A DNA stretch of 64,000 nucleotides from a virus. Its lineage: Duplodnaviria > Caudoviricetes. The stretch spans positions 93,624-157,623 of the IMG/VR virus record IMGVR_UViG_3300033076_001354. The stretch is one strand, 5' to 3'. This document shows, one piece after another, positions 562 to 60,858 of the stretch (within the stretch, counting starts at the first letter, position 1; every line of letters starts with the position of its first letter). Below the pieces are notes generated by a model that searched no databases, was not told the origin of the DNA, and was given only the letters and a program-made list of their open reading frames with translations. Made by a program: the position numbers and the translations under genes.

Positions 562-3374
562 TGGTTGATATTTCTTCGGTACAGCAAGACAGCATCACAG
601 TTCAATCTCTGCAGAACATAGGCGGGTCAATCGTCGACGCGTCTAATAACTTCTTCGTGAACACAAGCATAATGTTTATGGGGAACACGACGACCTCAGT
701 CATTATTCAATCTTCTGGAATATACACGCCGTCTATTGAGCTCGATGGAACGACCGCTAATCTTTCGATAAACACCACATCGTTGATGCTAAAGACGACC
801 ACCGCGAACTTATACATCGACGTCAACGAAGCTAATTTTCCCGGCGACGTAACGGTGCTCGGCAGCATACTTCTGACAGGAAGTTTTGTGTCGAACGGTA
901 CCAACGGCAACACCGGTGACGTTTTAGTCTCTGATGGTACAATATCATACTGGTCTTCGGCGGCCAACAACTCTACATACGCCTATGGTAAGACCGAAGG
1001 CAACCTCAACGTTAACAACTCCCTGACGTCGAACAACGCTTCTTACCTTGGTGGTATAGCGGCGAACCAATATGCCTATGCAAATCAGGCTGCGTCTTCC
1101 GCTAATAACGCGTCGTATCTTGGTGGTGTTGCAGCCGCAAGCTACATTCAGAACACTGACTCAAGGACTCTATCTGGCAACTTAAACTTCACCGGATCAA
1201 ACGTACAATTTAGTTCTTATTACTTAGGTAACGACAGTCAGATTAGGTTTAGAACTGTAAATAGCGCCGCCTACGCATACTTCGTTCAGCAGTCAGATGA
1301 TAACTTCGTCTTCTACACAACTAACGCTTCCTATGCTGCACGACCAGTTTGGTCAATATATGCAAATAGTTCTACAAGCGCTTTAGGATTTGGTGTTCCC
1401 GTAAACTTTAATTCCAACGTCGGTGCTTTGACTGCTAACGGCTCGGTCGGCGCCACAAACCAAGTCTTAACGTCTAACGGTTCAACAGTTTATTGGTCTT
1501 CACCTGGTGCTGCTTCAGTCAACTCTGCGGCGCAGTATACGTGGACCAATACACATACATTCCAAGCAAACGTTGCGTTTACTGGAAACAACATAAGCGT
1601 TGTGTCGAATACTGGATCAGTTATGTTTGCTGGTGCAAGCGACACAAACTGGAGAATTGGAAGGTCTACCGGTTCTGTCACAAAGTTCTACTACACCAAC
1701 AATTCACTTGACTTCATAAGCGGCGGTTCAAACCTTGAAGGGTTTACGTTTGGCGCACCTGGTGTCAACACATACCTTGAGACTGGTTCAGCTGGAACTT
1801 TTACAAAGAACCCAATCTACGTTGGAAACTCAAGCGTCAACGTCACTATCAACTCAACATCGTTCACAGGATCTTCAAACAACGCTTCTTACCTTGGAGG
1901 TGTCGCAGCCGCAGGCTACTTAAGATCTAATACGTCGGGTACTTACAGCGGTGGTGTTTTAAGGTTTACTAATGACACTGGTGTTTTAGGTTCATCGACG
2001 GGTGAAGCAAACACTCTTCAAATATATCAAGCAAACGTCAATGCCGACGCGTTTCAGACGTTTCATGTATCTGGTGATACGGCAGTTCACTTTGGTTTAG
2101 ATGGAACAACAAACGACTTATTTGTTGGTGGCTGGTCTTTAGGCGCTAACAAATATAAGGTATGGCATCAAAACAATGACGGAAGTGGGTCGGGATTAGA
2201 CGCGGATCTATTGGATGGTGTCAATGGTGCTAACTACGTTCAAAATACTGATTCTAGAACACTGTCCGGCAACTTAAACTTTACAGGCGCAAACACATCA
2301 ATATCTGGCAATCTAACTATTCAATCTACGGGTGAGTTGATTATATCAAACGGTGCCGGCATATACGCGAATGCATCTTTGGGTAATACTGGACAGGTGC
2401 TCACCAGTGACGGCGCTGGAGTTTATTGGTCTACGGTAAGTGGCGGAGGCGGAGGTGGTTTTACAAACGGTCAATCTATCTCTGTTAACAACTTTGTTAT
2501 TACGGGTGGCTTTACCGCGAATAGTTCAAATGGTACATCTGGACAAGTATTGACGTCAAACGGTTCAGGACTATATTGGTCTTCAGCGACAGTCACTACG
2601 GTTGCTAGCATCGAAACTGAGATAACTGCCGACGGGCCTTTGGCTTGGTGGAAATTCAATGAAACATCTGGAACCACTATCACGAACTACGGCTCACTTG
2701 GTTCGAACGCCAATCTTACACTCAGCGGAAGCTGGACACTCGCAGCCGCTAAGATAGTTCCTTCATCGAGTGATTCATTTGCTTTCTGTGCAACTTCAAC
2801 GTCATACGCCGGTACTGCAAACAACATCTTAGGAGCCCCTGCCTCAGGTGATCACACTCTTGAAGCTATAGTCGTGCTAACGAATGATGGTACGAACGCA
2901 AACAGGGTGATAAGCATCTCAGACGTCGGTGAGACTGCGGCCACGAACTACCAAGCAGGTTTGATGGTTACGACGGCGGGAGAACTTTTTGACTTCTGGG
3001 AGTACGGTTCAGGTACAAACGTATCCGTAGACTCAAACGTTCTTGTCAGAAGAGGCGAACCTCTACATCTTGCATTCGTTAAAAACAGCACAGCTAAGAC
3101 TGTTACGTTCTATGTCAATGGCGTTAAAACCAACGTTCTTACATATGCAAACGAACCAACCGGTGGTACGACCGCTTACACCAGAGTAGGTAATAACGGC
3201 ACTGATACAACTTCACGCTTCACGGTAGCCCACACCGCGATCTACAACAAGCAATTATCGGACGCAAGGGTTTTAGCGCATGCAAAAGCGGCCGGTCTTG
3301 CTTATACACCAAACTATGTAACAACGTCACTGGCCTCTGGATCATTTGGCTATAATTTAATCTTTGGAGGATAA
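561..3374 (+). CDS. Long tail fibre protein with C-terminal LamG/concanavalin-like lectin domain
   Basis: Internal repeats NNASYLGG(V/I)AA, QNTDSRTLSGNLNFTG and (G/N)QVLTS(N/D)G..xYWS; fibre motif GSGSGLDADLLDG; C-terminal 'PLAWWKFNE...VTFYVNG...AIYNKQLS' typical of LamG-like domains. Confidence 0.8.
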   Translation: MVDISSVQQDSITVQSLQNIGGSIVDASNNFFVNTSIMFMGNTTTSVIIQSSGIYTPSIELDGTTANLSINTTSLMLKTTTANLYIDVNEANFPGDVTVLGSILLTGSFVSNGTNGNTGDVLVSDGTISYWSSAANNSTYAYGKTEGNLNVNNSLTSNNASYLGGIAANQYAYANQAASSANNASYLGGVAAASYIQNTDSRTLSGNLNFTGSNVQFSSYYLGNDSQIRFRTVNSAAYAYFVQQSDDNFVFYTTNASYAARPVWSIYANSSTSALGFGVPVNFNSNVGALTANGSVGATNQVLTSNGSTVYWSSPGAASVNSAAQYTWTNTHTFQANVAFTGNNISVVSNTGSVMFAGASDTNWRIGRSTGSVTKFYYTNNSLDFISGGSNLEGFTFGAPGVNTYLETGSAGTFTKNPIYVGNSSVNVTINSTSFTGSSNNASYLGGVAAAGYLRSNTSGTYSGGVLRFTNDTGVLGSSTGEANTLQIYQANVNADAFQTFHVSGDTAVHFGLDGTTNDLFVGGWSLGANKYKVWHQNNDGSGSGLDADLLDGVNGANYVQNTDSRTLSGNLNFTGANTSISGNLTIQSTGELIISNGAGIYANASLGNTGQVLTSDGAGVYWSTVSGGGGGGFTNGQSISVNNFVITGGFTANSSNGTSGQVLTSNGSGLYWSSATVTTVASIETEITADGPLAWWKFNETSGTTITNYGSLGSNANLTLSGSWTLAAAKIVPSSSDSFAFCATSTSYAGTANNILGAPASGDHTLEAIVVLTNDGTNANRVISISDVGETAATNYQAGLMVTTAGELFDFWEYGSGTNVSVDSNVLVRRGEPLHLAFVKNSTAKTVTFYVNGVKTNVLTYANEPTGGTTAYTRVGNNGTDTTSRFTVAHTAIYNKQLSDARVLAHAKAAGLAYTPNYVTTSLASGSFGYNLIFGG
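1033..2583 (+). repeat. Intragenic peptide repeats of the tail fibre
   Basis: NNASYLGG occurs three times (near 1033, 1104, 1878); QNTDSRTLSGNLNFTG twice (1149, 2241); VLxSxGxxxYWS four times. Confidence 0.75.
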
Positions 3375-3376
3375 AG

Positions 3377-3733
3377 ATGGCAGCTCCTAATCTACTGTCA
3401 CTTACTACGGGAACGGGTAAGTCGTACTTCGCGAATCTTACCAGTACGGCCAACGCGACTCTTTTAACGACCGGCGCGAACCAAGTTTATAAGATCAACA
3501 ACATCACCGTTTCAAACCTTGATGGCACAGCTGGGTACGACGTGACTATGTATGTTGCTAACGCGACTGTCACTGTCCCTATAGCATATCAGATCACAGT
3601 GCCGGCAAAGTCAACTTTGGTTCTAACTGATAAGTCTTCTCAATTTTATCTGGAAGAAAGCTATCAGCTGCAGGGTGGAACCAGCGCCAACGGTAAGTTG
3701 TCGGTCCTCGTCAGCTACGAACTTCTTCAGTAA
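3377..3733 (+). CDS. Small tail-fibre-associated virion protein
   Basis: GGAGG Shine-Dalgarno; beta-rich 118 aa lying between the fibre and propeller genes. Confidence 0.55.
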   Translation: MAAPNLLSLTTGTGKSYFANLTSTANATLLTTGANQVYKINNITVSNLDGTAGYDVTMYVANATVTVPIAYQITVPAKSTLVLTDKSSQFYLEESYQLQGGTSANGKLSVLVSYELLQ

Positions 3734-54086: not shown

Positions 54087-55151
54087 TTGTCTCTCATCAA
54101 TCGACTCATTAAGAATTCTACGATCGACCAATCGTCGGTTCTCACTGAAAGTAAGATCTACAATCGCAAAGATATGATCACTACTAGCGTTCCAATGGTG
54201 AACGTGGCGCTCTCGGGCCGCATCGACGGCGGCTTGACTCCGGGACTCACCATCATGGCGGGTCCGTCGAAGCACTTCAAGTCGGCCTTTTCCCTCCTTA
54301 TGGCCGGCGCCTATATGAAGCAGTATCCCGAGAGCGTTCTTTTATTCTATGACTCCGAGTTTGGTACGCCCAAGAGCTACTTCGACGCGTTCAACATCGA
54401 CATGGATCGAGTGATTCACACGCCGATCACAGACATCGAGAAGCTGAAGTTCGACATCGTCAAGCAGCTCGAGGAGATCGGTCGCGACGACAAGGTGGTC
54501 ATCGTCATTGACTCAGTCGGCAACCTCGCGTCGAAGAAAGAAACCGACGACGCGCTCGAGGGTAAGTCGGTCGCGGATATGTCCCGTGCAAAAGCTCTCA
54601 AGTCTTTGTTCCGCATGGTCACACCGCACTTGACGCTCAAAGATATTCCTTTGATCGTGGTTAATCATACCTACAAAGAAATGGCCATGTATCCACGCGA
54701 CATCGTCTCCGGTGGTACCGGCATCTACTACTCGGCCGACACCATCTGGATCCTTGGTCGTCAGCAGGAGAAAGACGGCAAGGACATCACCGGCTACAAC
54801 TTCGTCATCAACGTTGAGAAGTCGCGCTACGTGAAAGAAAAGTCAAAGATCCCAATCACAGTGTCTTATGAGGGCGGGATCAAGAAGTGGTCGGGCCTGC
54901 TCGATTTGGCGCTCGAGGGTGGATACATCGCGAAGCCTACGGCCCAGTCTTATCAGTTCGTTGATCGCACCACTGGCGAACTCACCGGTCCAAAGCTCAA
55001 AGCATCTGAGATAGAAGACAACGGCGATGCATGGAAAAGTCTGCTCTCGACGACTGACTTCGCCGAATGGATCAAAAAGAAGTACACTATCGCAACCGGT
55101 TCGCTCGTGAGTCACGACGATGAACCACTGATCGAGGACGACGATGAATAG
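54087..55151 (+). CDS. uvsX: RecA-like recombinase UvsX
   Basis: GPSKHFKS, YDSEFG, DS.GNLAS, 'NHTY', 'SGGTG'. Confidence 0.96.
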   Translation: MSLINRLIKNSTIDQSSVLTESKIYNRKDMITTSVPMVNVALSGRIDGGLTPGLTIMAGPSKHFKSAFSLLMAGAYMKQYPESVLLFYDSEFGTPKSYFDAFNIDMDRVIHTPITDIEKLKFDIVKQLEEIGRDDKVVIVIDSVGNLASKKETDDALEGKSVADMSRAKALKSLFRMVTPHLTLKDIPLIVVNHTYKEMAMYPRDIVSGGTGIYYSADTIWILGRQQEKDGKDITGYNFVINVEKSRYVKEKSKIPITVSYEGGIKKWSGLLDLALEGGYIAKPTAQSYQFVDRTTGELTGPKLKASEIEDNGDAWKSLLSTTDFAEWIKKKYTIATGSLVSHDDEPLIEDDDE

Positions 55152-55536
55152 TAAAGAGTTATTTTCACTTGAAGACCTGCTGCCTGAAGTTTCTAATGAG
55201 CATAAGCTCGCCGTAACTCAGTGGGTCTTCAAACACATCGTCGAGCATGCAAGAGAAGGCGGGTCTTATCGCTACTTGATCTATGATCGCCTCGGCTTTG
55301 GTCCAGAAGCATACGTCCCTCTCTGCAACGATGGGTTGACAATATCCAACGAGTTTGATATATCTCAGATGGATGAGATCAAAAAGATCGTTCGCGAGCA
55401 TGAATACTCAGCACTCAAGCATATCCTTGGGATGTGCGACGAGCATGACTGCTACAAGGACGCCAGCTGCGGATGGCCGACAGACGATGGCTACCGCCGC
55501 ACATGCCACGCACACATGAAAGTTGATAATGATTGA
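55144..55536 (+). CDS. Hypothetical protein with C-terminal Cys/His cluster
   Basis: 'GSYRYLIYDRLGF'; C..C...C...C..H. Confidence 0.6.
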   Translation: MNSKELFSLEDLLPEVSNEHKLAVTQWVFKHIVEHAREGGSYRYLIYDRLGFGPEAYVPLCNDGLTISNEFDISQMDEIKKIVREHEYSALKHILGMCDEHDCYKDASCGWPTDDGYRRTCHAHMKVDND

Positions 55537-56908
55537 GCAGACAATACTCTCTCACCTGATATACAATGAGTCGTACGCGAGGAAGACGCTTCCCTTCCTC
55601 AAGGACGAGTACTTCCACAACCTACCCGACAAGGTCGTCTATCGCCTGATCGACGACTACGTCAAGAAGTACAACAGCACCCCTACCAAAGAGGTGCTGA
55701 TGATCGAGCTGAACAACCGCGACGGTCTCAACGAGAACTCGTTCAAGGAGTCGAAGCGTCTTATCGAAGACCTGCAGGTCGATAACACCGAACTCAAGTG
55801 GCTGCTCGACTCGACCGAGAAGTTCTGTCAAGAGAAGGCGATCTACAATGCTATCATGGCTTCGATCAAGATTATCGACGACAAGTCTGGAGCGAGCTCT
55901 ACTGGAGCTATACCCACTCTCCTATCAGATGCCCTTGGCGTCAGCTTTGACGTTAGCATTGGTCATGACTACTTTCTTAACGCTGACGATCGATACGATT
56001 TCTATCATCGTCGGGAAGAGCATATACCATTCGACCTCGAGTACTTCAATAAGATCACTAAGGGCGGACTTGTTAGAAAGACTCTTAACATTGCCTTGGC
56101 CGGCACGGGTGTGGGCAAGTCTCTTTTCATGTGCCATTGCGCTTCTCATAATCTGACGCAAGGCAAGAACGTACTCTACATCACCATGGAAATGGCAGAA
56201 GAAAAGATCGCCGAGCGCATCGACGCGAACCTGCTCAATGTTACGGTCGACGAACTCGCCACACTTCCTAAAGACGCCTACGACAAGAAGATCGCGCGGG
56301 TGAAGGAGAAGACCGTCGGTAAGTTGATCATCAAGGAGTATCCCACCGCTTCTGCAGGCTCAGCGAACTTCAGACACCTTCTCAACGAGCTTCGCATCAA
56401 GCGAAACTTCGTGCCCGACATCATCTACATCGACTATCTCAACATCTGCTCATCGAGTCGCATCAAGGCCGGTGCCAACGTCAACTCATACACATACATC
56501 AAGGCGATCGCTGAGGAGCTGCGTGGTCTCGCCGTTGAGTTCAATGTTCCTGTGGTCTCCGCTACTCAAACTACTCGAGGTGGCTACGGGAATTCCGACG
56601 TAGAACTTACTGACACCTCTGAGTCTTTCGGCCTGCCGGCTACCGCCGATTTGATGTTCGCCTTGATCTCCACCGAGGAGATGGAAGACTTGTCGCAGCT
56701 GATGGTCAAGCAGCTCAAGAATCGCTACAACGACCCAACGATCCACCGACGCTTCGTGGTCGGCATCGACCGAGCCAAGATGCGGTTGTACAACACCGAA
56801 GACTCCGCTCAGGACGGGATCATGGACGACACACCGGTATTCAACAAGACCACGTTCGGTGCAGCCGACGAGGATCGCAAGCGCAGGCTCAAGGAGTTCA
56901 TCACATGA
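55529..56908 (+). CDS. gp41: Replicative helicase gp41 (DnaB-like)
   Basis: AGTGVGKS, 'EMAEE', 'IDYL', 'SATQ', 'ESFGLPATAD', 'KNRY'. Confidence 0.97.
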   Translation: MIEQTILSHLIYNESYARKTLPFLKDEYFHNLPDKVVYRLIDDYVKKYNSTPTKEVLMIELNNRDGLNENSFKESKRLIEDLQVDNTELKWLLDSTEKFCQEKAIYNAIMASIKIIDDKSGASSTGAIPTLLSDALGVSFDVSIGHDYFLNADDRYDFYHRREEHIPFDLEYFNKITKGGLVRKTLNIALAGTGVGKSLFMCHCASHNLTQGKNVLYITMEMAEEKIAERIDANLLNVTVDELATLPKDAYDKKIARVKEKTVGKLIIKEYPTASAGSANFRHLLNELRIKRNFVPDIIYIDYLNICSSSRIKAGANVNSYTYIKAIAEELRGLAVEFNVPVVSATQTTRGGYGNSDVELTDTSESFGLPATADLMFALISTEEMEDLSQLMVKQLKNRYNDPTIHRRFVVGIDRAKMRLYNTEDSAQDGIMDDTPVFNKTTFGAADEDRKRRLKEFIT

Positions 56909-57150
56909 TCGTCGACAACGACAACGACGACTACGCCGAGGTGATAGCCGACTACATCATGACATACTTGGTGCAGCAGCAGGCAGCCGGAAGAACCGTA
57001 GTCTATGAGTCAGAGATCTTCAAGCTCCTGGGATCAGAGATTCCCGAGGGTAAAGAGGATCGAGCGTTTGTGTTGAAAGAATACACTCAGGTAAAGATCT
57101 CAGACAACGTCGTGTCGATGCAGGAATTTAAGTCTAGAATAAAAAATTAG
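56905..57150 (+). CDS. Hypothetical protein
   Basis: AAGGAG SD; coupled to gp41. Confidence 0.55.
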   Translation: MIVDNDNDDYAEVIADYIMTYLVQQQAAGRTVVYESEIFKLLGSEIPEGKEDRAFVLKEYTQVKISDNVVSMQEFKSRIKN

Positions 57151-57201
57151 TTGACATTTAGTTCAACTTGATATATACTAGAAATATAAGCTGTTTGACA
57201 A
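57151..57201 (+). promoter_or_regulatory. Sigma70 promoter followed by boxA-like antitermination element
   Basis: TTGACA-17-TATACT, then GCTGTTTGACAA (compare rrn boxA GCTCTTTAACAA). Confidence 0.65.
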
Positions 57202-57216
57202 TCGAGTATAGAGACA

Positions 57217-57380
57217 ATTGTCTCTTCATGGGTACTACACTGGGTAGCGTTGATAGACGTATCATCTAGTCGGGCTGGTTGGGCTTCCTCCCAGTCCTGA
57301 GACAACCAGAGCCAGAAGCTAAGGAATGGAAGCACCAGACTCCGAAATTAGGCTATATGTAGTATCCTTGAAGAGATAAT
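57217..57380 (+). ncRNA. Putative structured ncRNA domain A
   Basis: About 23-bp closing helix (57217-57239 with 57358-57380, G-U pairs and one mismatch); internal hairpins TGATA/TATCA, CTGGTTG/CAACCAG, CTAGTCGG/CCGA..TTAG. Confidence 0.65.
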
Positions 57381-57385
57381 CTAGT

Positions 57386-57531
57386 TTTGTGGTAAGGAAA
57401 GTCTATGGCATGTAGCCCGCAAACGCGTTGCGGTGAGTGAACTCATAGGGTCGGTGTGATCAACCGATAAAAGGAGCATGGGCAAGTTGTTGGAAGCTAT
57501 GCCAACGACCAGATACCGCACCTGCCACAAA
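57386..57531 (+). ncRNA. Putative structured ncRNA domain B
   Basis: Closing helix TTTGTGGTAAGG/CCTGCCACAAA; hairpins CCGCAA/TTGCGG, TGAG/CTCA, TCGGT/ACCGA, GTTGTTGG/CCAACGAC. Confidence 0.65.
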
Positions 57532-57533
57532 TT

Positions 57534-57736
57534 GAAGTTTAAGCTAGAGGGATTGTAGGTGGACCTGTAATGTATGCCGATGTGTATAGGGACTGGGCTT
57601 GTAACCTTCAAAGATAAGGCAGACCCACTCGGGCCTCCTGCTCGATATAATCTGCCTCCGCCATACGCGAAACGTGGGATGGGCTGCGTATGCGGGGTTT
57701 GGTGGTTTTCCTGACACAAGAAAAACCACCGCTTCT
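57534..57736 (+). ncRNA. Putative structured ncRNA domain C
   Basis: Hairpins ATTGTAGG/CCTGTAAT, AGGCAGA/TCTGCCT, CCG.CATACGC/GCGTATGCGG, GGTGGTTTT/AAAACCACC; possible loop-loop pairing CCCAC(57624)/GTGGG(57674). Confidence 0.6.
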
Positions 57737-57750
57737 TAGAAAAAAAGTTG

Positions 57751-57779
57751 TTGACATTTTTTTTCGTTTGGTTTACTAT
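57751..57779 (+). promoter_or_regulatory. Sigma70 promoter
   Basis: TTGACA-17-TACTAT. Confidence 0.75.
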
Positions 57780-57820
57780 TTGAAAGTTGGGGTAAGACCC
57801 CGTTTAACATGGAGTATATT

Positions 57821-58072
57821 ATGACTAGCACTGAACAAGTTCTTGACGCATTGTACAACGGTGAAGAGCTCACCGCGAAGCAGATCAAGTCGCGCTACGG
57901 CGTTGCCAACCCGACTGCTCTGATCACACACCTCCGCAAGGAAGGCCACGCGATCTACTTGAACAATCGCAAGAATGCAACCGGCACGATCGCCAAGTAT
58001 CGAGTCGGCAAGCCTACCCGTCGCGTAGTTGCAGCGGGTTACGCCGCTCTCGGCGCTCAAGCTTTTGCTTGA
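57821..58072 (+). CDS. Small winged-helix DNA-binding protein
   Basis: 'LTAKQI..RYGVANP.A.I..LRK.G.AIY.N'; GGAG SD. Confidence 0.75.
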   Translation: MTSTEQVLDALYNGEELTAKQIKSRYGVANPTALITHLRKEGHAIYLNNRKNATGTIAKYRVGKPTRRVVAAGYAALGAQAFA

Positions 58073-58093
58073 TATATAGTTAGTCCAAACATC

Positions 58094-58116
58094 GAGGGGG
58101 CTTCGGCCCCCTCTTT
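58094..58116 (+). terminator. Intrinsic terminator-like hairpin (UUCG loop)
   Basis: GAGGGGGC-TTCG-GCCCCCTC-TTT. Confidence 0.8.
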
Positions 58117-58121
58117 AGTAT

Positions 58122-58198
58122 GCGGGGTTCGTCTAGCGGTTTAGGATAACGCCCTTTCACGGCGCAGATCACGGGTTCGAATCCCGTACCCCGTACCA
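58122..58198 (+). tRNA. tRNA-Glu(TTC)
   Basis: Cloverleaf; anticodon loop CTTTCAC; TTCGAAT T-loop; CCA end. Confidence 0.9.
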
Positions 58199-58199
58199 T

Positions 58200-58274
58200 T
58201 TCGGAGTAGCACAGCGGTAGTGCATTCGACTGTTAATCGAAGGGTCGCTGGTTCGAATCCAGCCTCCGGAGCCA
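58200..58274 (+). tRNA. tRNA-Asn(GTT)
   Basis: TTCGA-CTGTTAA-TCGAA anticodon arm; acceptor TTCGGAG/CTCCGGA; GCCA end. Confidence 0.92.
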
Positions 58275-58290
58275 GTTTCAAGGAATCAAT

Positions 58291-58533
58291 ATGTTTGAGT
58301 GGTTAGTCGCTTTCTTTGGTATGTTCTCGGTCGACATCTTACACGCGATCTACATCAAGAGCGTGCAGAACGACAAGCCACTGGTCGCATCGGGATACGC
58401 CGCGGTCATCTACGTATTAGCGAGCTGGGTGACTATAAGCTACGTAGGCGATGTATGGATATTGATTCCGGCTACGTTGGGTGCTTTTGCCGGAACATAC
58501 GGCGGCGTCTTAATAAATAAAAAACTTAAGTGA
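58291..58533 (+). CDS. Small multi-TM membrane protein
   Basis: AAGGA SD; three hydrophobic segments, 'LGAFAGTY'. Confidence 0.7.
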   Translation: MFEWLVAFFGMFSVDILHAIYIKSVQNDKPLVASGYAAVIYVLASWVTISYVGDVWILIPATLGAFAGTYGGVLINKKLK

Positions 58534-58540
58534 GTAAGAT

Positions 58541-58630
58541 ATGACAGACATGACAAAAGCTATCATAGTGTCATTCGCAATGTATATTGCAGTCTGCGTG
58601 TATTGTATCGTGTTTTTTAATGTTAACTAA
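58541..58630 (+). CDS. Putative 29-aa single-TM peptide
   Basis: MTDMTKAIIVSFAMYIAVCVYCIVFFNVN; weak SD. Confidence 0.35.
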   Translation: MTDMTKAIIVSFAMYIAVCVYCIVFFNVN

Positions 58631-58704
58631 GTCGGTGTAGTGTAACGGTAGCACAACGGCCTCCAACTCCGTTAGTCAGGGTTCAAATCCTTGCACCTTC
58701 GCCA
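58631..58704 (+). tRNA. tRNA-Trp(CCA) with stem mismatches
   Basis: D, T and CCA elements present; anticodon loop CTCCAAC; mismatches at acceptor pairs 2 and 3 and at the last anticodon-stem pair. Confidence 0.75.
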
Positions 58705-58713
58705 GTTTTTAGA

Positions 58714-58867
58714 ATTTGGTAGGCAGTGTAGATGCACGGCTTGAACGCCTAGCCTCCTATAGTTTGGAGTGACGCGCAACAGTCAAGCGAGGTCGGGGAG
58801 GTAAGAAGCCTCATAACCTTGGCAACCCGTGCACTGAAAAGGATAGCGCTGTCCGTACCTATCAAAT
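58714..58867 (+). ncRNA. Putative structured ncRNA D (~154 nt)
   Basis: Closing helix ATTTGGTAGG/CCTATCAAAT; TGCACGG/CCGTGCA; GCTTGA/TCAAGC; CTCC/GGAG; GAGG/CCTC; GGATAG/CTGTCC; followed by a terminator. Confidence 0.65.
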
Positions 58868-58898
58868 GAAGAGGGAGGGTTTGCGCCCTCCCTCTTTT
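58868..58898. terminator. Intrinsic terminator between the RNA cluster and the convergent autotransporter gene
   Basis: AAGAGGGAGGG-TTTGCG-CCCTCCCTCTT-TT. Confidence 0.85.
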
Positions 58899-58902
58899 GT
58901 TA

Positions 58903-60858
58903 TCAGAACTTCACTACTAGTCCAGCCATGATGCTGGCGTTGTCGTAGTTCGACCCACTGTCGTAGCCGGCAGAAACGTTGATCGAAACTTTATCGGTCA
59001 ACTTCTTCTTTGCCACCAGCTTAACACCGGTCACCGCACCGTACTGTTCTGTCTGAGTGACCCTGCCTTCGAGGGCAACGTTCTCAGTGATCTCATAGCG
59101 GGTGCCGACGTAGGGCATGGCGTAAGTCTTGTTGCTCGCGACGATTCCATTCGAGAGAAGCGAAGATCCGCCTTCCCTTATAGAACCGATGTCGCTGTTG
59201 ACAATCATCACGCCTGCGAATGGCCTCCAGTTCGTGTAGGTCTTCGCCGAATAAACTGCAATGTCACCATAGACCATGCGCTGCTCAGAGTTCTGCTGAT
59301 AGCTCAAGTCAAAGTCATCGATGTTGCTCTTCGACGTGATGTCGGAGATGTGTACGCCGAAAGCTCCCTTGATCCAAAGCTTCTCAGTCCTGTTAAAGAC
59401 GTAGGCCGACGCGGAGTACGAGTCGCCGATGAGCGTTGAATAAGCGAGGTTGTTTCCGACGATCTGTCCGGCTCTACCTGCAACACCGGCAGTTACGTTG
59501 CCGACCGTCTTTTGGTATCCAAAATTCAATCCGCTCGAACCAATCGTGCTGTTGAACGATCCATTCGCGGTTGCCCATGGTCCGTCAGGCGTATTGAATA
59601 CGTCGACGATGAATGGATTCACAACGTTGTAGTCATACGAGCGCTGTGTTCCACCAACGTTTACACTGCGCGATTCATCGGCGTTCGAGCTGACTACGTT
59701 AGTTCCAGCAATAGTGGTCACCACGTCTTGGTTGAAGTTCGTGGTTGTCGTCACCGGCGTTCCATTAGATGAAGTCGTCGACCCGTCGCTGTAGGTAGTG
59801 ATCGTTGTCGGTGTAGTCACGGTAGTAGTGGTATAAGGCGTAGTGGCCGTCACAGTCTGAGTGTATGGAGTGCTCGTGGTAGTAGTTGTCGTACGAGTCA
59901 CCGTGACCGTGCCGCCCTCCCTAGTCGAAGCGTCGCTGTGGGTTTGAGTCACAACTGGCGTTCCATAGGTGTAGGAAGTTGTGGTCGTGGTTTGACCCGC
60001 TGCAGCGGTGCTGCTGGTCGTAGTGCTTGGACCAGCCGCGGTGCTGACGACCGTAGGTGTTCCGCCTCCGCTCGGTGCAACGCCACCGTTGTTGACCGTC
60101 GCGAGGATGGTCGTTGAAGTGAGGGTAGATGAGTAGCCGCCCGCAGCACCAGTAGTAGTACCACCGGTCGCGCTGTATCCGCCGCCGCTCATGTTTGCAG
60201 TGACGCCGGTGGCGTTGGTGACGCAGGCCGCCGATCCACTAACGGTGCCACAAACGCCCGAGTAGTTGGTGCTTGAAGACCAACCCTGTGCTTGAACACC
60301 GTTCGGTGCAACGCCGAACTCAGGGTTGTAGAGGATGTTTGTAGTTCCACTGTTGAACGTCAACGTAGGCATCTGCCACTGTGGACCATAGTTACCTGCC
60401 CACCAAGAAGCGTCGGTGCCTATCATCGTCACTTTGACGTACGCCGTCTGAGCAGCGTCTGCAGCGGATAAAGTGTACGAGAGTGAGATCGTATTCCACG
60501 GCGCTGGGTTGTCGCCGGGACCGGTAGACCAAGAGTTAGCCTGAAGAAGATTCTGGCTGTAGCTCGTTTGAGTGGATGTAACGAGAGTTCCCGATGAATT
60601 GTAGAACTCAAGCTTCAAGTTACCGGTGTCGTGCTGCAGGTTTCTACCGCCGCCGGCGTGGGCGTTGACGGAGAAGTCGAAGGTTCCACCCGCCTGCATT
60701 GCTTGGTCAAACACGATGTTCTGGCTAATCGTTGAATTAGCCTGATAGCTCATGTTGACTGTGTTGTAGTTGGAACCTGAATTGAACTGCGCGTAAGCTG
60801 TAGGCGCAAAAAGCATCGACGCGGCCAGAACGGCCAGCGCGTAAAATTTCTTAAACAT
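58903..60858 (-). CDS. Autotransporter-like outer-membrane protein (signal peptide, carbohydrate-binding-like domain, Thr-rich stalk, beta-barrel)
   Basis: MFKKFYALAVLAASMLFAPTAYA signal; 'GTDASWWAGNYGP'; T-rich linker; amphipathic beta strands ending in terminal Phe (AGLVVKF). Confidence 0.75.
   Translation of the reverse strand: MFKKFYALAVLAASMLFAPTAYAQFNSGSNYNTVNMSYQANSTISQNIVFDQAMQAGGTFDFSVNAHAGGGRNLQHDTGNLKLEFYNSSGTLVTSTQTSYSQNLLQANSWSTGPGDNPAPWNTISLSYTLSAADAAQTAYVKVTMIGTDASWWAGNYGPQWQMPTLTFNSGTTNILYNPEFGVAPNGVQAQGWSSSTNYSGVCGTVSGSAACVTNATGVTANMSGGGYSATGGTTTGAAGGYSSTLTSTTILATVNNGGVAPSGGGTPTVVSTAAGPSTTTSSTAAAGQTTTTTSYTYGTPVVTQTHSDASTREGGTVTVTRTTTTTTSTPYTQTVTATTPYTTTTVTTPTTITTYSDGSTTSSNGTPVTTTTNFNQDVVTTIAGTNVVSSNADESRSVNVGGTQRSYDYNVVNPFIVDVFNTPDGPWATANGSFNSTIGSSGLNFGYQKTVGNVTAGVAGRAGQIVGNNLAYSTLIGDSYSASAYVFNRTEKLWIKGAFGVHISDITSKSNIDDFDLSYQQNSEQRMVYGDIAVYSAKTYTNWRPFAGVMIVNSDIGSIREGGSSLLSNGIVASNKTYAMPYVGTRYEITENVALEGRVTQTEQYGAVTGVKLVAKKKLTDKVSINVSAGYDSGSNYDNASIMAGLVVKF

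Follow-up and report, generated by a model that had tools for sequence, protein, structure and literature searches.

Introduction

To our knowledge, phage transfer RNA (tRNA) clusters have been known to carry stable RNAs since T4, and the job of these RNAs was never found. T4 rnaC and rnaD are released from a tRNA precursor. Both are small, stable and structured (species 1, 139 nucleotides (nt), and species 2, 119 nt; NC_000866 70908-71171). GOLLD and ROOL are likewise orphan RNAs of complex fold, found in phages and prophages, that tend to be located near tRNAs; each is a single molecule of ~580-800 nt and assembles into multimeric cages, and GOLLD came to light in lake metagenomes (PMC5737381; 10.1101/2024.12.08.627333). 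Theta ribozymes, minimal and similar to the ribozyme of hepatitis delta virus (HDV), also adjoin phage tRNAs (PMC10879173). Here we analyse positions 57151-57740 of a 64,000-nt window, which forms the final 64 kb of virus record IMGVR_UViG_3300033076_001354 in IMG/VR (157.6 kb; 98% complete). In this segment four RNA modules, A, B, C1 and C2, follow a promoter and a boxA-like element, and they are new RNA families of a known general kind, the orphan stable RNAs of phage tRNA clusters.

The modules share with T4 rnaC and rnaD their position on the tRNA strand in a phage tRNA-cluster context; rnaC ends in a tRNA-like T arm, whereas the modules have none and their folds are pseudoknotted. Compared with the large single RNAs GOLLD and ROOL, the window encodes four separable predicted RNAs of 63-165 nt. 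B and C2 lie directly behind the CCA of a tRNA in relatives, much as theta ribozymes adjoin tRNAs, and C2 has a nested pseudoknotted pairing at its 5′ end; unlike theta ribozymes, the modules persist here without an upstream tRNA. The layout also resembles the leader of a ribosomal RNA (rRNA) operon, where a promoter is followed by a boxA sequence at the start of an untranslated transcript (PMC10250234, PMC5725501), and a ~23-bp helix pairs the 5′ and 3′ flanks of module A in the manner of the 16S leader-trailer helix cut by ribonuclease (RNase) III. In contrast to an rRNA operon, the cargo is a 120-nt orphan RNA, and the boxA-like sequence is off at two consensus positions. Fremin et al. 2023 (PMC10690425) mined IMG/VR for a set of 8,495 anonymous candidate RNAs, which could include these modules.

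We propose, at a probability of roughly 60%, that the segment is an early, promoter-driven and untranslated operon of four RNA genes, whose boxA/Nus-protected precursor would be cut into stable, trans-acting RNAs. A first-pass annotation of the window had offered either a large three-domain non-coding RNA or a precursor processed into several small RNAs; the former is contradicted by relatives in which the modules separate, and the latter fits best.

Results

Structure and covariation of the modules

Module A and its pairings are as follows.

57217-57380, + strand: module A, 164 nt
57217-39/57358-80: helix P1, 23-bp closing helix
57240-43/57306-09: helix P2
57249-55/57260-66: helix P3
57272-78/57291-97: helix P4
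57310-13/57351-54: helix P7
57323-24, 57327-28 / 57336-37, 57342-43: helix P6
57282-87/57315-20: pseudoknot, GGCUUC/GAAGCU

A conserved-pattern search placed A in 39 contigs, and 51 copies were counted in IMG/VR loci. A covariance model (R1) built from 15 close copies recovered 46 full-length copies at 53-194 bits. Across 34 distinct copies in the model-fitted alignment, 94.5% of cells were paired, compared to 68% after shuffling and ~40% when the partners were slid, and compensatory changes occurred in 40 of the 46 pairs. The bounds drawn for A in the first-pass annotation were exact and its 23-bp closing helix is real: in the same 34 copies P1 had 93.9% of cells paired, with compensatory changes in all 23 pairs. 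The same annotation had paired GCTTCC with GGAAGC, which is the wrong partner. GGAAGC is a nearly invariant hairpin-loop segment, and GGCUUC instead pairs with GAAGCU (99% of cells paired, 4/6 pairs compensatory), a pseudoknot that lies outside the R1 model. P1, P2 and P7 meet in a three-way junction, in which the P2 arm holds P3 and P4 and the P7 arm holds P6; the pseudoknot links the P4 loop to the P7 arm.

At 30-40 bits, R1 also detected cassettes with the closing stem of A around an unrelated interior. Nearly the same stem of 20-23 bp, around a different interior, was seen in related loci (denoted L and a number) at L167 2730-2874 (- strand), just 3′ of the A copy in L084, and at L095 7289-7387. 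Same-stem cassettes at times stand in tandem with A, and their junction (GAGACAA followed by TTGTCTC) is palindromic and can form an inter-cassette hairpin.

Module B and its pairings are listed next.

57386-57531, + strand: module B, core ~75 nt
57386-92/57525-31: helix P1, 7-bp closing stem
57472-77/57518-23: helix P2, with a conserved A.A mismatch
57486-93/57502-09: helix P3, variable hairpin

The bounds predicted for B also proved exact. Its core pattern was found in 33 viral contigs of IMG/VR (33 copies), the internal loops of the core being nearly invariant, and a plain MAFFT alignment of 24 copies gave compensatory changes in 10 of 16 pairs. The four hairpins assigned to B beforehand are explained by a lineage-specific insertion of ~66 nt (57402-57467), which adds two extra hairpin arms and is shared with L179, L199 and L202. 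Unannotated B-like copies with compensatory stems are present in Ralstonia phage RSP15, inside a tRNA array, and in Cobetia phage Carin-5.

The 3′ part of the segment had been described as a single domain C (57534-57736). This domain resolves into two independent modules.

57547-57609, + strand: module C1, ~63 nt, closing pairs GAGGG/CCUUC tentative
57618-57730, + strand: module C2, 113 nt
57618-23/57651-56: C2 helix H1
57629-34/57640-45: C2 variable hairpin
57658-60, 57662-68 / 57686-95: C2 helix H2
57701-09/57722-30: C2 helix H3, with conserved loop CCUGACACAAGA
57624-28/57674-78: C2 pseudoknot, CCCAC/GUGGG

C1 occurs in only three other contigs (L130, L167 and L207), too few copies for a structural test; in L207 it lies between two tRNAs. 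C2 is far more widespread, with 70 copies in IMG/VR loci, 60 contigs by conserved-pattern search and 44 copies at 65-134 bits with its covariance model, R2. In the model-fitted alignment 97.6% of cells were paired and 19/31 pairs showed compensatory changes. The CCCAC/GTGGG loop-loop pairing of the first-pass annotation survives the division of domain C. It lies outside the R2 model, is 100% paired, and has changed on both sides in three divergent copies, reading CUCA(C/U)/GUGAG in L106 and L116 and CCUGU/ACAGG in L091. Since the loop of the last hairpin is nearly invariant, this hairpin is more than a terminator. Homologues of A, B and C2 thus supplied the covariation that had been proposed as a check on the segment.

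A fifth structured module, D (58705-58868), was observed between tRNA-Trp and a strong terminator (58871-58898). Its homologues in six other loci always lie 0-1 nt from a tRNA, following tRNA-Gly in L106 and L161. D was considered as a relative of B, and the B profile fails to detect it at E<=1e-6.

Coding potential, strand and known families

The prediction that the segment is non-coding held: no open reading frame (ORF) within 57151-57740 matches Pfam or PHROGs, including a 112-amino-acid (aa) ORF on the minus strand and a 26-aa ORF from an AUG in B. Among copies of B, the hairpin length varies out of frame of the 26-aa ORF. Neither ARAGORN nor Rfam RF00005 calls a tRNA between 57151 and 57740. 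The earlier assignment of structured RNA to the + strand is upheld by the R1 score of module A in the window (160.5 bits on the + strand versus 30.7 on the - strand) and by the tRNA strand, as all 144 module copies whose locus also holds a tRNA lie on the same strand as the nearest one. Folding energy does not separate the strands. The evidence beyond chance is covariation and comparative data, not thermodynamics alone.

We compared the region with Rfam 15 (4227 models, including GOLLD, ROOL, transfer-messenger RNA (tmRNA), RNase P, 6S, signal recognition particle (SRP) RNA, YrlA, riboswitches and self-cleaving ribozymes). Across 56500-59000, the only matches at E<=1 were the three tRNAs and a chance YrlA match lying on tRNAs, and the gathering score gave tRNAs only for the whole window and 11 related loci. 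The segment is thus absent from Rfam, as originally suspected. Searches with blastn against 50,697 phage records returned no match for the whole region, for A or for C2, and weak matches for B only; R1 and R2 found no match in the RSP15 and Carin-5 genomes. With filters off, R1 and R2 reached at best 9.4 and 5.8 bits in NC_000866 68000-76000, none of it on rnaC or rnaD, and homology to these T4 RNAs was rejected.

Two short resemblances were judged coincidental. Both GGAAGCAC in A, which resembles the SRP RNA helix 8 motif, and AGGAAAGU in B, which resembles RNase P CR-I, have a different pairing context, and neither the SRP nor the RNase P model of Rfam gives a match. A Y RNA/Ro60 system was also rejected, as the genome (157.6 kb) has neither a TROVE nor an RtcB gene and A has no YrlA match.

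Promoter, boxA-like element and leader

Three elements precede or overlap the start of module A.

57151-57179, + strand: sigma-70-type (T4-early-like) promoter, TTGACA-17-TATACT
57190-57201, + strand: boxA-like element, GCTGTTTGACAA
57209-57224, + strand: leader hairpin AGAGAC-AAUU-GUCUCU, read from sequence

The promoter, identified in the first-pass annotation, matches 11 of 12 consensus positions. The 3′ arm of the leader hairpin overlaps the first bases of the closing stem of A, creating an alternative pairing, and the equivalent hairpin of relatives carries UUCG, GAAA or GAGA loops.

The boxA-like lead proposed for the segment gained support from its recurrence in about a dozen independent loci, where it holds the corresponding position. 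Across 1.6 Mb of loci, G[CT]T[CG]TTTGA[CG]A was counted 38 times, with 7.25 expected. Its non-coding occurrences, in this dozen or so of loci, all head an RNA/tRNA array, usually just 5′ of A, and both there and in the window the motif lies 10-45 nt 3′ of promoter-like -10 hexamers. In L089 the sequence reads GCTCTTTGACAATTTA, which we take to be nearly identical to the Escherichia coli rrn boxA plus its 3′ flank. The window boxA, GCTGTTTGACA, matches 9/11 positions of GYTCTTTAANA and the boxA of L087, L089 and L105, GCTCTTTGACA, 10/11; this consensus is gammaproteobacterial (PMC5725501), and the probable host is alphaproteobacterial. We read the motif as a putative Nus-factor site that would keep Rho from terminating a long untranslated transcript. 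Neither boxB nor boxC was identified in the unit. The TTGACA within boxA was considered as the -35 of a second promoter and rejected, as the window, L087 and L101 lack a usable -10 at a spacing of 16-18 nt.

Other leaders were also noted. Two more distant carriers, L091 and L088, have CTGTTCTTTAAAAAT some 100-130 nt upstream of A, behind TATAAT-like hexamers; this boxA-like variant is a different one and may track another host group. Elsewhere a further conserved element, CCCCUGRCUGGUACUGG...GGUGGUUUCCAGCAGGG, preceded by a hairpin, stands in place of the boxA leader, upstream of A or of same-stem cassettes (L003 4670-4725, L162, L084, L106, L118 and L167). Just upstream of the RNA array in L003 (4444-4550) and L167 (~3180-3075, - strand) lies a conserved ~35-aa ORF (C-KH--R--NGQ--P-AG-W) followed by a terminator.

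The modules are separable and lie beside tRNAs in relatives

Relatives were first sought in loci around gp41 homologues, where the matches covered only pieces of the segment, a different one per relative: L002 matched the 3′ half of domain C, directly behind tRNA-Pro, and L003 matched domain A, 3 kb from the helicase. Some carrier contigs are 260-350 kb long, and the families therefore extend beyond a single phage lineage. Neither the exact A pattern nor the exact C2 pattern matched any of 185,579 prokaryote species genomes, a search able to detect only invariant-core sequences.

The window joins its four modules with linkers of 5-15 nt behind a single promoter. This contiguity, and the similar location of GOLLD and ROOL beside tRNAs of phages (PMC5737381; 10.1101/2024.12.08.627333), would suit one multi-domain RNA of ~550 nt acting as a single molecule in the manner of those RNAs. 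We consider this highly unlikely, and the comparative data largely refute it. Several tRNA genes separate the modules in L084, L106, L161 and L162, and many loci carry a single module (C2 by itself in 44, A in 33 and B in 22). The predicted cross-module fold is not conserved, and the GOLLD and ROOL models of Rfam find no match.

Proximity to tRNAs differs between families, with median distances of 3 nt for B, 23 nt for A and 68 nt for C2. Within 20 nt of a tRNA lie 29/33 B copies and 22/54 C2 copies, typically 0-5 nt after the CCA. These positions would suit an unlikely alternative, in which B, C2 and perhaps A are cis-acting elements for processing of the tRNA array and, in the extreme, new self-cleaving ribozymes that free the tRNA 3′ end. 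The pseudoknotted fold of C2, the nearly invariant unpaired bases of B and C2, and the precedent of theta ribozymes next to phage tRNAs (PMC10879173) point the same way. Against it, the window keeps B and C2 without an adjoining tRNA, C2 of the close relative L135 starts a few bases after the transcription start, and no Rfam ribozyme family matches. Nor is C2 HDV-like, as it lacks a P4 hairpin before the pseudoknot 3′ strand and a conserved G.U first pair. Its pseudoknot 3′ strand (57674-78) sits inside the H2 loop, the inner hairpin is variable or absent, and a J4/2 cannot be assigned; H1 opens with G-C in 18 copies, U-A in 12 and A-U in 4. An HDV/theta topology was therefore rejected for C2. 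A CCA-adding enzyme was not found in the phage genome.

Four relatives share one order, with A at the head, then tRNAs, tRNA-Ile followed by B, C2 between tRNA-Pro and tRNA-Asn, and later tRNA-Gly followed by D. In the window, by comparison, A-B-C1-C2 stand back to back with only three tRNAs downstream, and for this reason we interpret the segment as a collapsed tRNA array, in which the tRNA genes would have been lost and the RNA genes kept.

The comparison with L135, which is ~93% identical in the flanking genes, is the most direct. There, C2 is headed by the same promoter as the window's 57151-57179, which runs straight into C2 without boxA, A, B or C1. Alignment of window 57120-57640 with L135 5830-5900 delimited the missing block.

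57177-57609, + strand: boxA+A+B+C1 block, ~433 nt, present in the window and missing from L135

In L002 (88% gp41 identity) C2 lies behind tRNA-Pro and A is not present. The state of L135 implies that the modules are separable, individually selected and accessory. Separability argues against one large RNA and also, with less force, against a role confined to maturing neighbouring tRNAs in cis.

Presence or absence of the ~433-nt block between near-identical phages would also suit a selfish or relic cassette, either a spacer left by decay of a tRNA array or a mobile, palindromic element that spreads through recombination at the long stems and has no phage function, as would the recurrence of the same closing stem around different interiors and the palindromic junction described above. 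This origin seems to us very doubtful. The cores are nearly invariant across phages that differ in surrounding tRNAs and genes, the alignments contain dozens of compensatory changes, including those in two pseudoknots, the order is syntenic, and each module is found once in this phage genome. Together these features indicate purifying selection on RNA structure.

L002 also contains tRNA fragments, a tRNA-like 5′ portion without the 3′ acceptor strand (2828-2890) and a lone tRNA 3′ half (3580-3622, the T arm plus ...CACCA), with a 116-aa ORF at 2925-3275. These pieces could be a disrupted or split tRNA gene.

Genomic setting and host

The surroundings of the segment are as follows.

54087-55151: UvsX-like recombinase, before the RNA stretch
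55523-56908: gp41-type DnaB helicase, before the RNA stretch
end at 57150: 81-aa ORF, directly 5′ of the RNA stretch
57751-57779: promoter-like site of the HTH_39 gene, TTGACA-17-TACTAT
57809-58072: HTH_39 gene (phrog_4973), 87 aa, 3′ of the RNA stretch
58094-58113: GC-rich terminator-like hairpin, ending 8 nt before tRNA-Glu
3′ of the HTH_39 gene: tRNA-Glu, then tRNA-Asn and tRNA-Trp

The earlier statement that the segment lies just upstream of the tRNA cluster is incorrect in the strict sense, as the HTH_39 gene with its promoter and the terminator-like hairpin intervene. C2 ends in a hairpin and stands upstream of this helix-turn-helix gene in both the window and L135, an arrangement compatible with a cis-regulatory leader (a riboswitch or attenuator) for it. 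We find such a role extremely improbable: the gene is served by a promoter-like site of its own, what follows C2 in most loci is a tRNA and not an ORF, and in L002 no module precedes the gene. The HTH_39 gene directly follows gp41 in L002, and follows C2 in L135.

By helicase, the named phages closest to this T4-like phage (~65% identical) are Stenotrophomonas phage DLP_6 and the T4-like cyanophages. The phage genome encodes a permuted two-piece tmRNA outside the window (Rfam alpha_tmRNA, 133 bits; L211 283-630, equal to genome C1:45482-45829), for which ARAGORN gives the tag ANDNFAPSLALAA. Because this tmRNA is of alphaproteobacterial type, it suggests that the host is alphaproteobacterial.

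Discussion

In the proposed model of an untranslated RNA operon, host sigma-70 RNA polymerase would start at 57151-57179, and the nascent boxA would recruit NusB/NusE and other Nus factors, as in rRNA operons. The Nus-bound untranslated transcript would then escape Rho termination. Host RNases would cut the precursor between modules, with RNase III acting at the 23-bp leader-trailer stem of A, and RNase P, Z or E would cut where tRNAs adjoin modules in relatives. The stable RNAs so released, of ~63-165 nt, may work in trans, with their nearly invariant loops and pseudoknots serving to bind a protein or a small ligand. In the literature searched we found no description of Nus-protected phage tRNA/ncRNA (non-coding RNA) operons.

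Several observations weigh against this model. The transcript, its ends and its processing are things we infer from the DNA. Minimum free energy compared with shuffles is weak and strand-blind (z = -2.5 on the + strand, -2.75 on the - strand). The usual start of B and C2 just behind a tRNA CCA fits a cis role in tRNA maturation as well. The window boxA departs from the gammaproteobacterial consensus at positions 4 and 8, and at the E. coli suhB boxA a C4T/T6C double mutation abolishes SuhB association (PMC5725501). Finally, the paired percentages of A and C2 are inflated, their alignments having been fitted to the models; this bias affects neither of the two pseudoknots nor the B alignment.

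The modules have been kept after loss of the flanking tRNAs and are present or absent between near-identical phages, which points to an accessory job. This job is probably tied to translation, tRNA biology or counter-defence, and is not that of a structural spacer. The tRNA loss with RNA retention uncouples the RNAs from tRNA maturation, and the question can thereby be tested. The window thus offers a natural experiment in which the tRNAs are gone and the RNAs remain, next to a sister phage without three of the four modules, and the B-like copies in the cultured phages RSP15 and Carin-5 provide a bench system.

Four families are now defined, three of them with covariation-supported structures and dozens of copies each, and two of these three are pseudoknotted. 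A bolder possibility, which we hold only tentatively and consider rather unlikely, is that A, B and C2 each represent a new class of functional RNA, with a tertiary fold comparable to those of riboswitches or ribozymes, and form a kit that lytic phages carry in tRNA arrays against host translation or tRNA-directed defence. Such RNAs might be decoys or inhibitors of tRNA-cleaving defence nucleases, or new self-cleaving ribozymes that cut up the array. Recurrence of the boxA suggests that these phages use the host Nus machinery against Rho on long untranslated transcripts. If the functional-RNA kit were true, the boxA leader would mean that phages borrow rRNA-type antitermination for batteries of non-coding RNAs.
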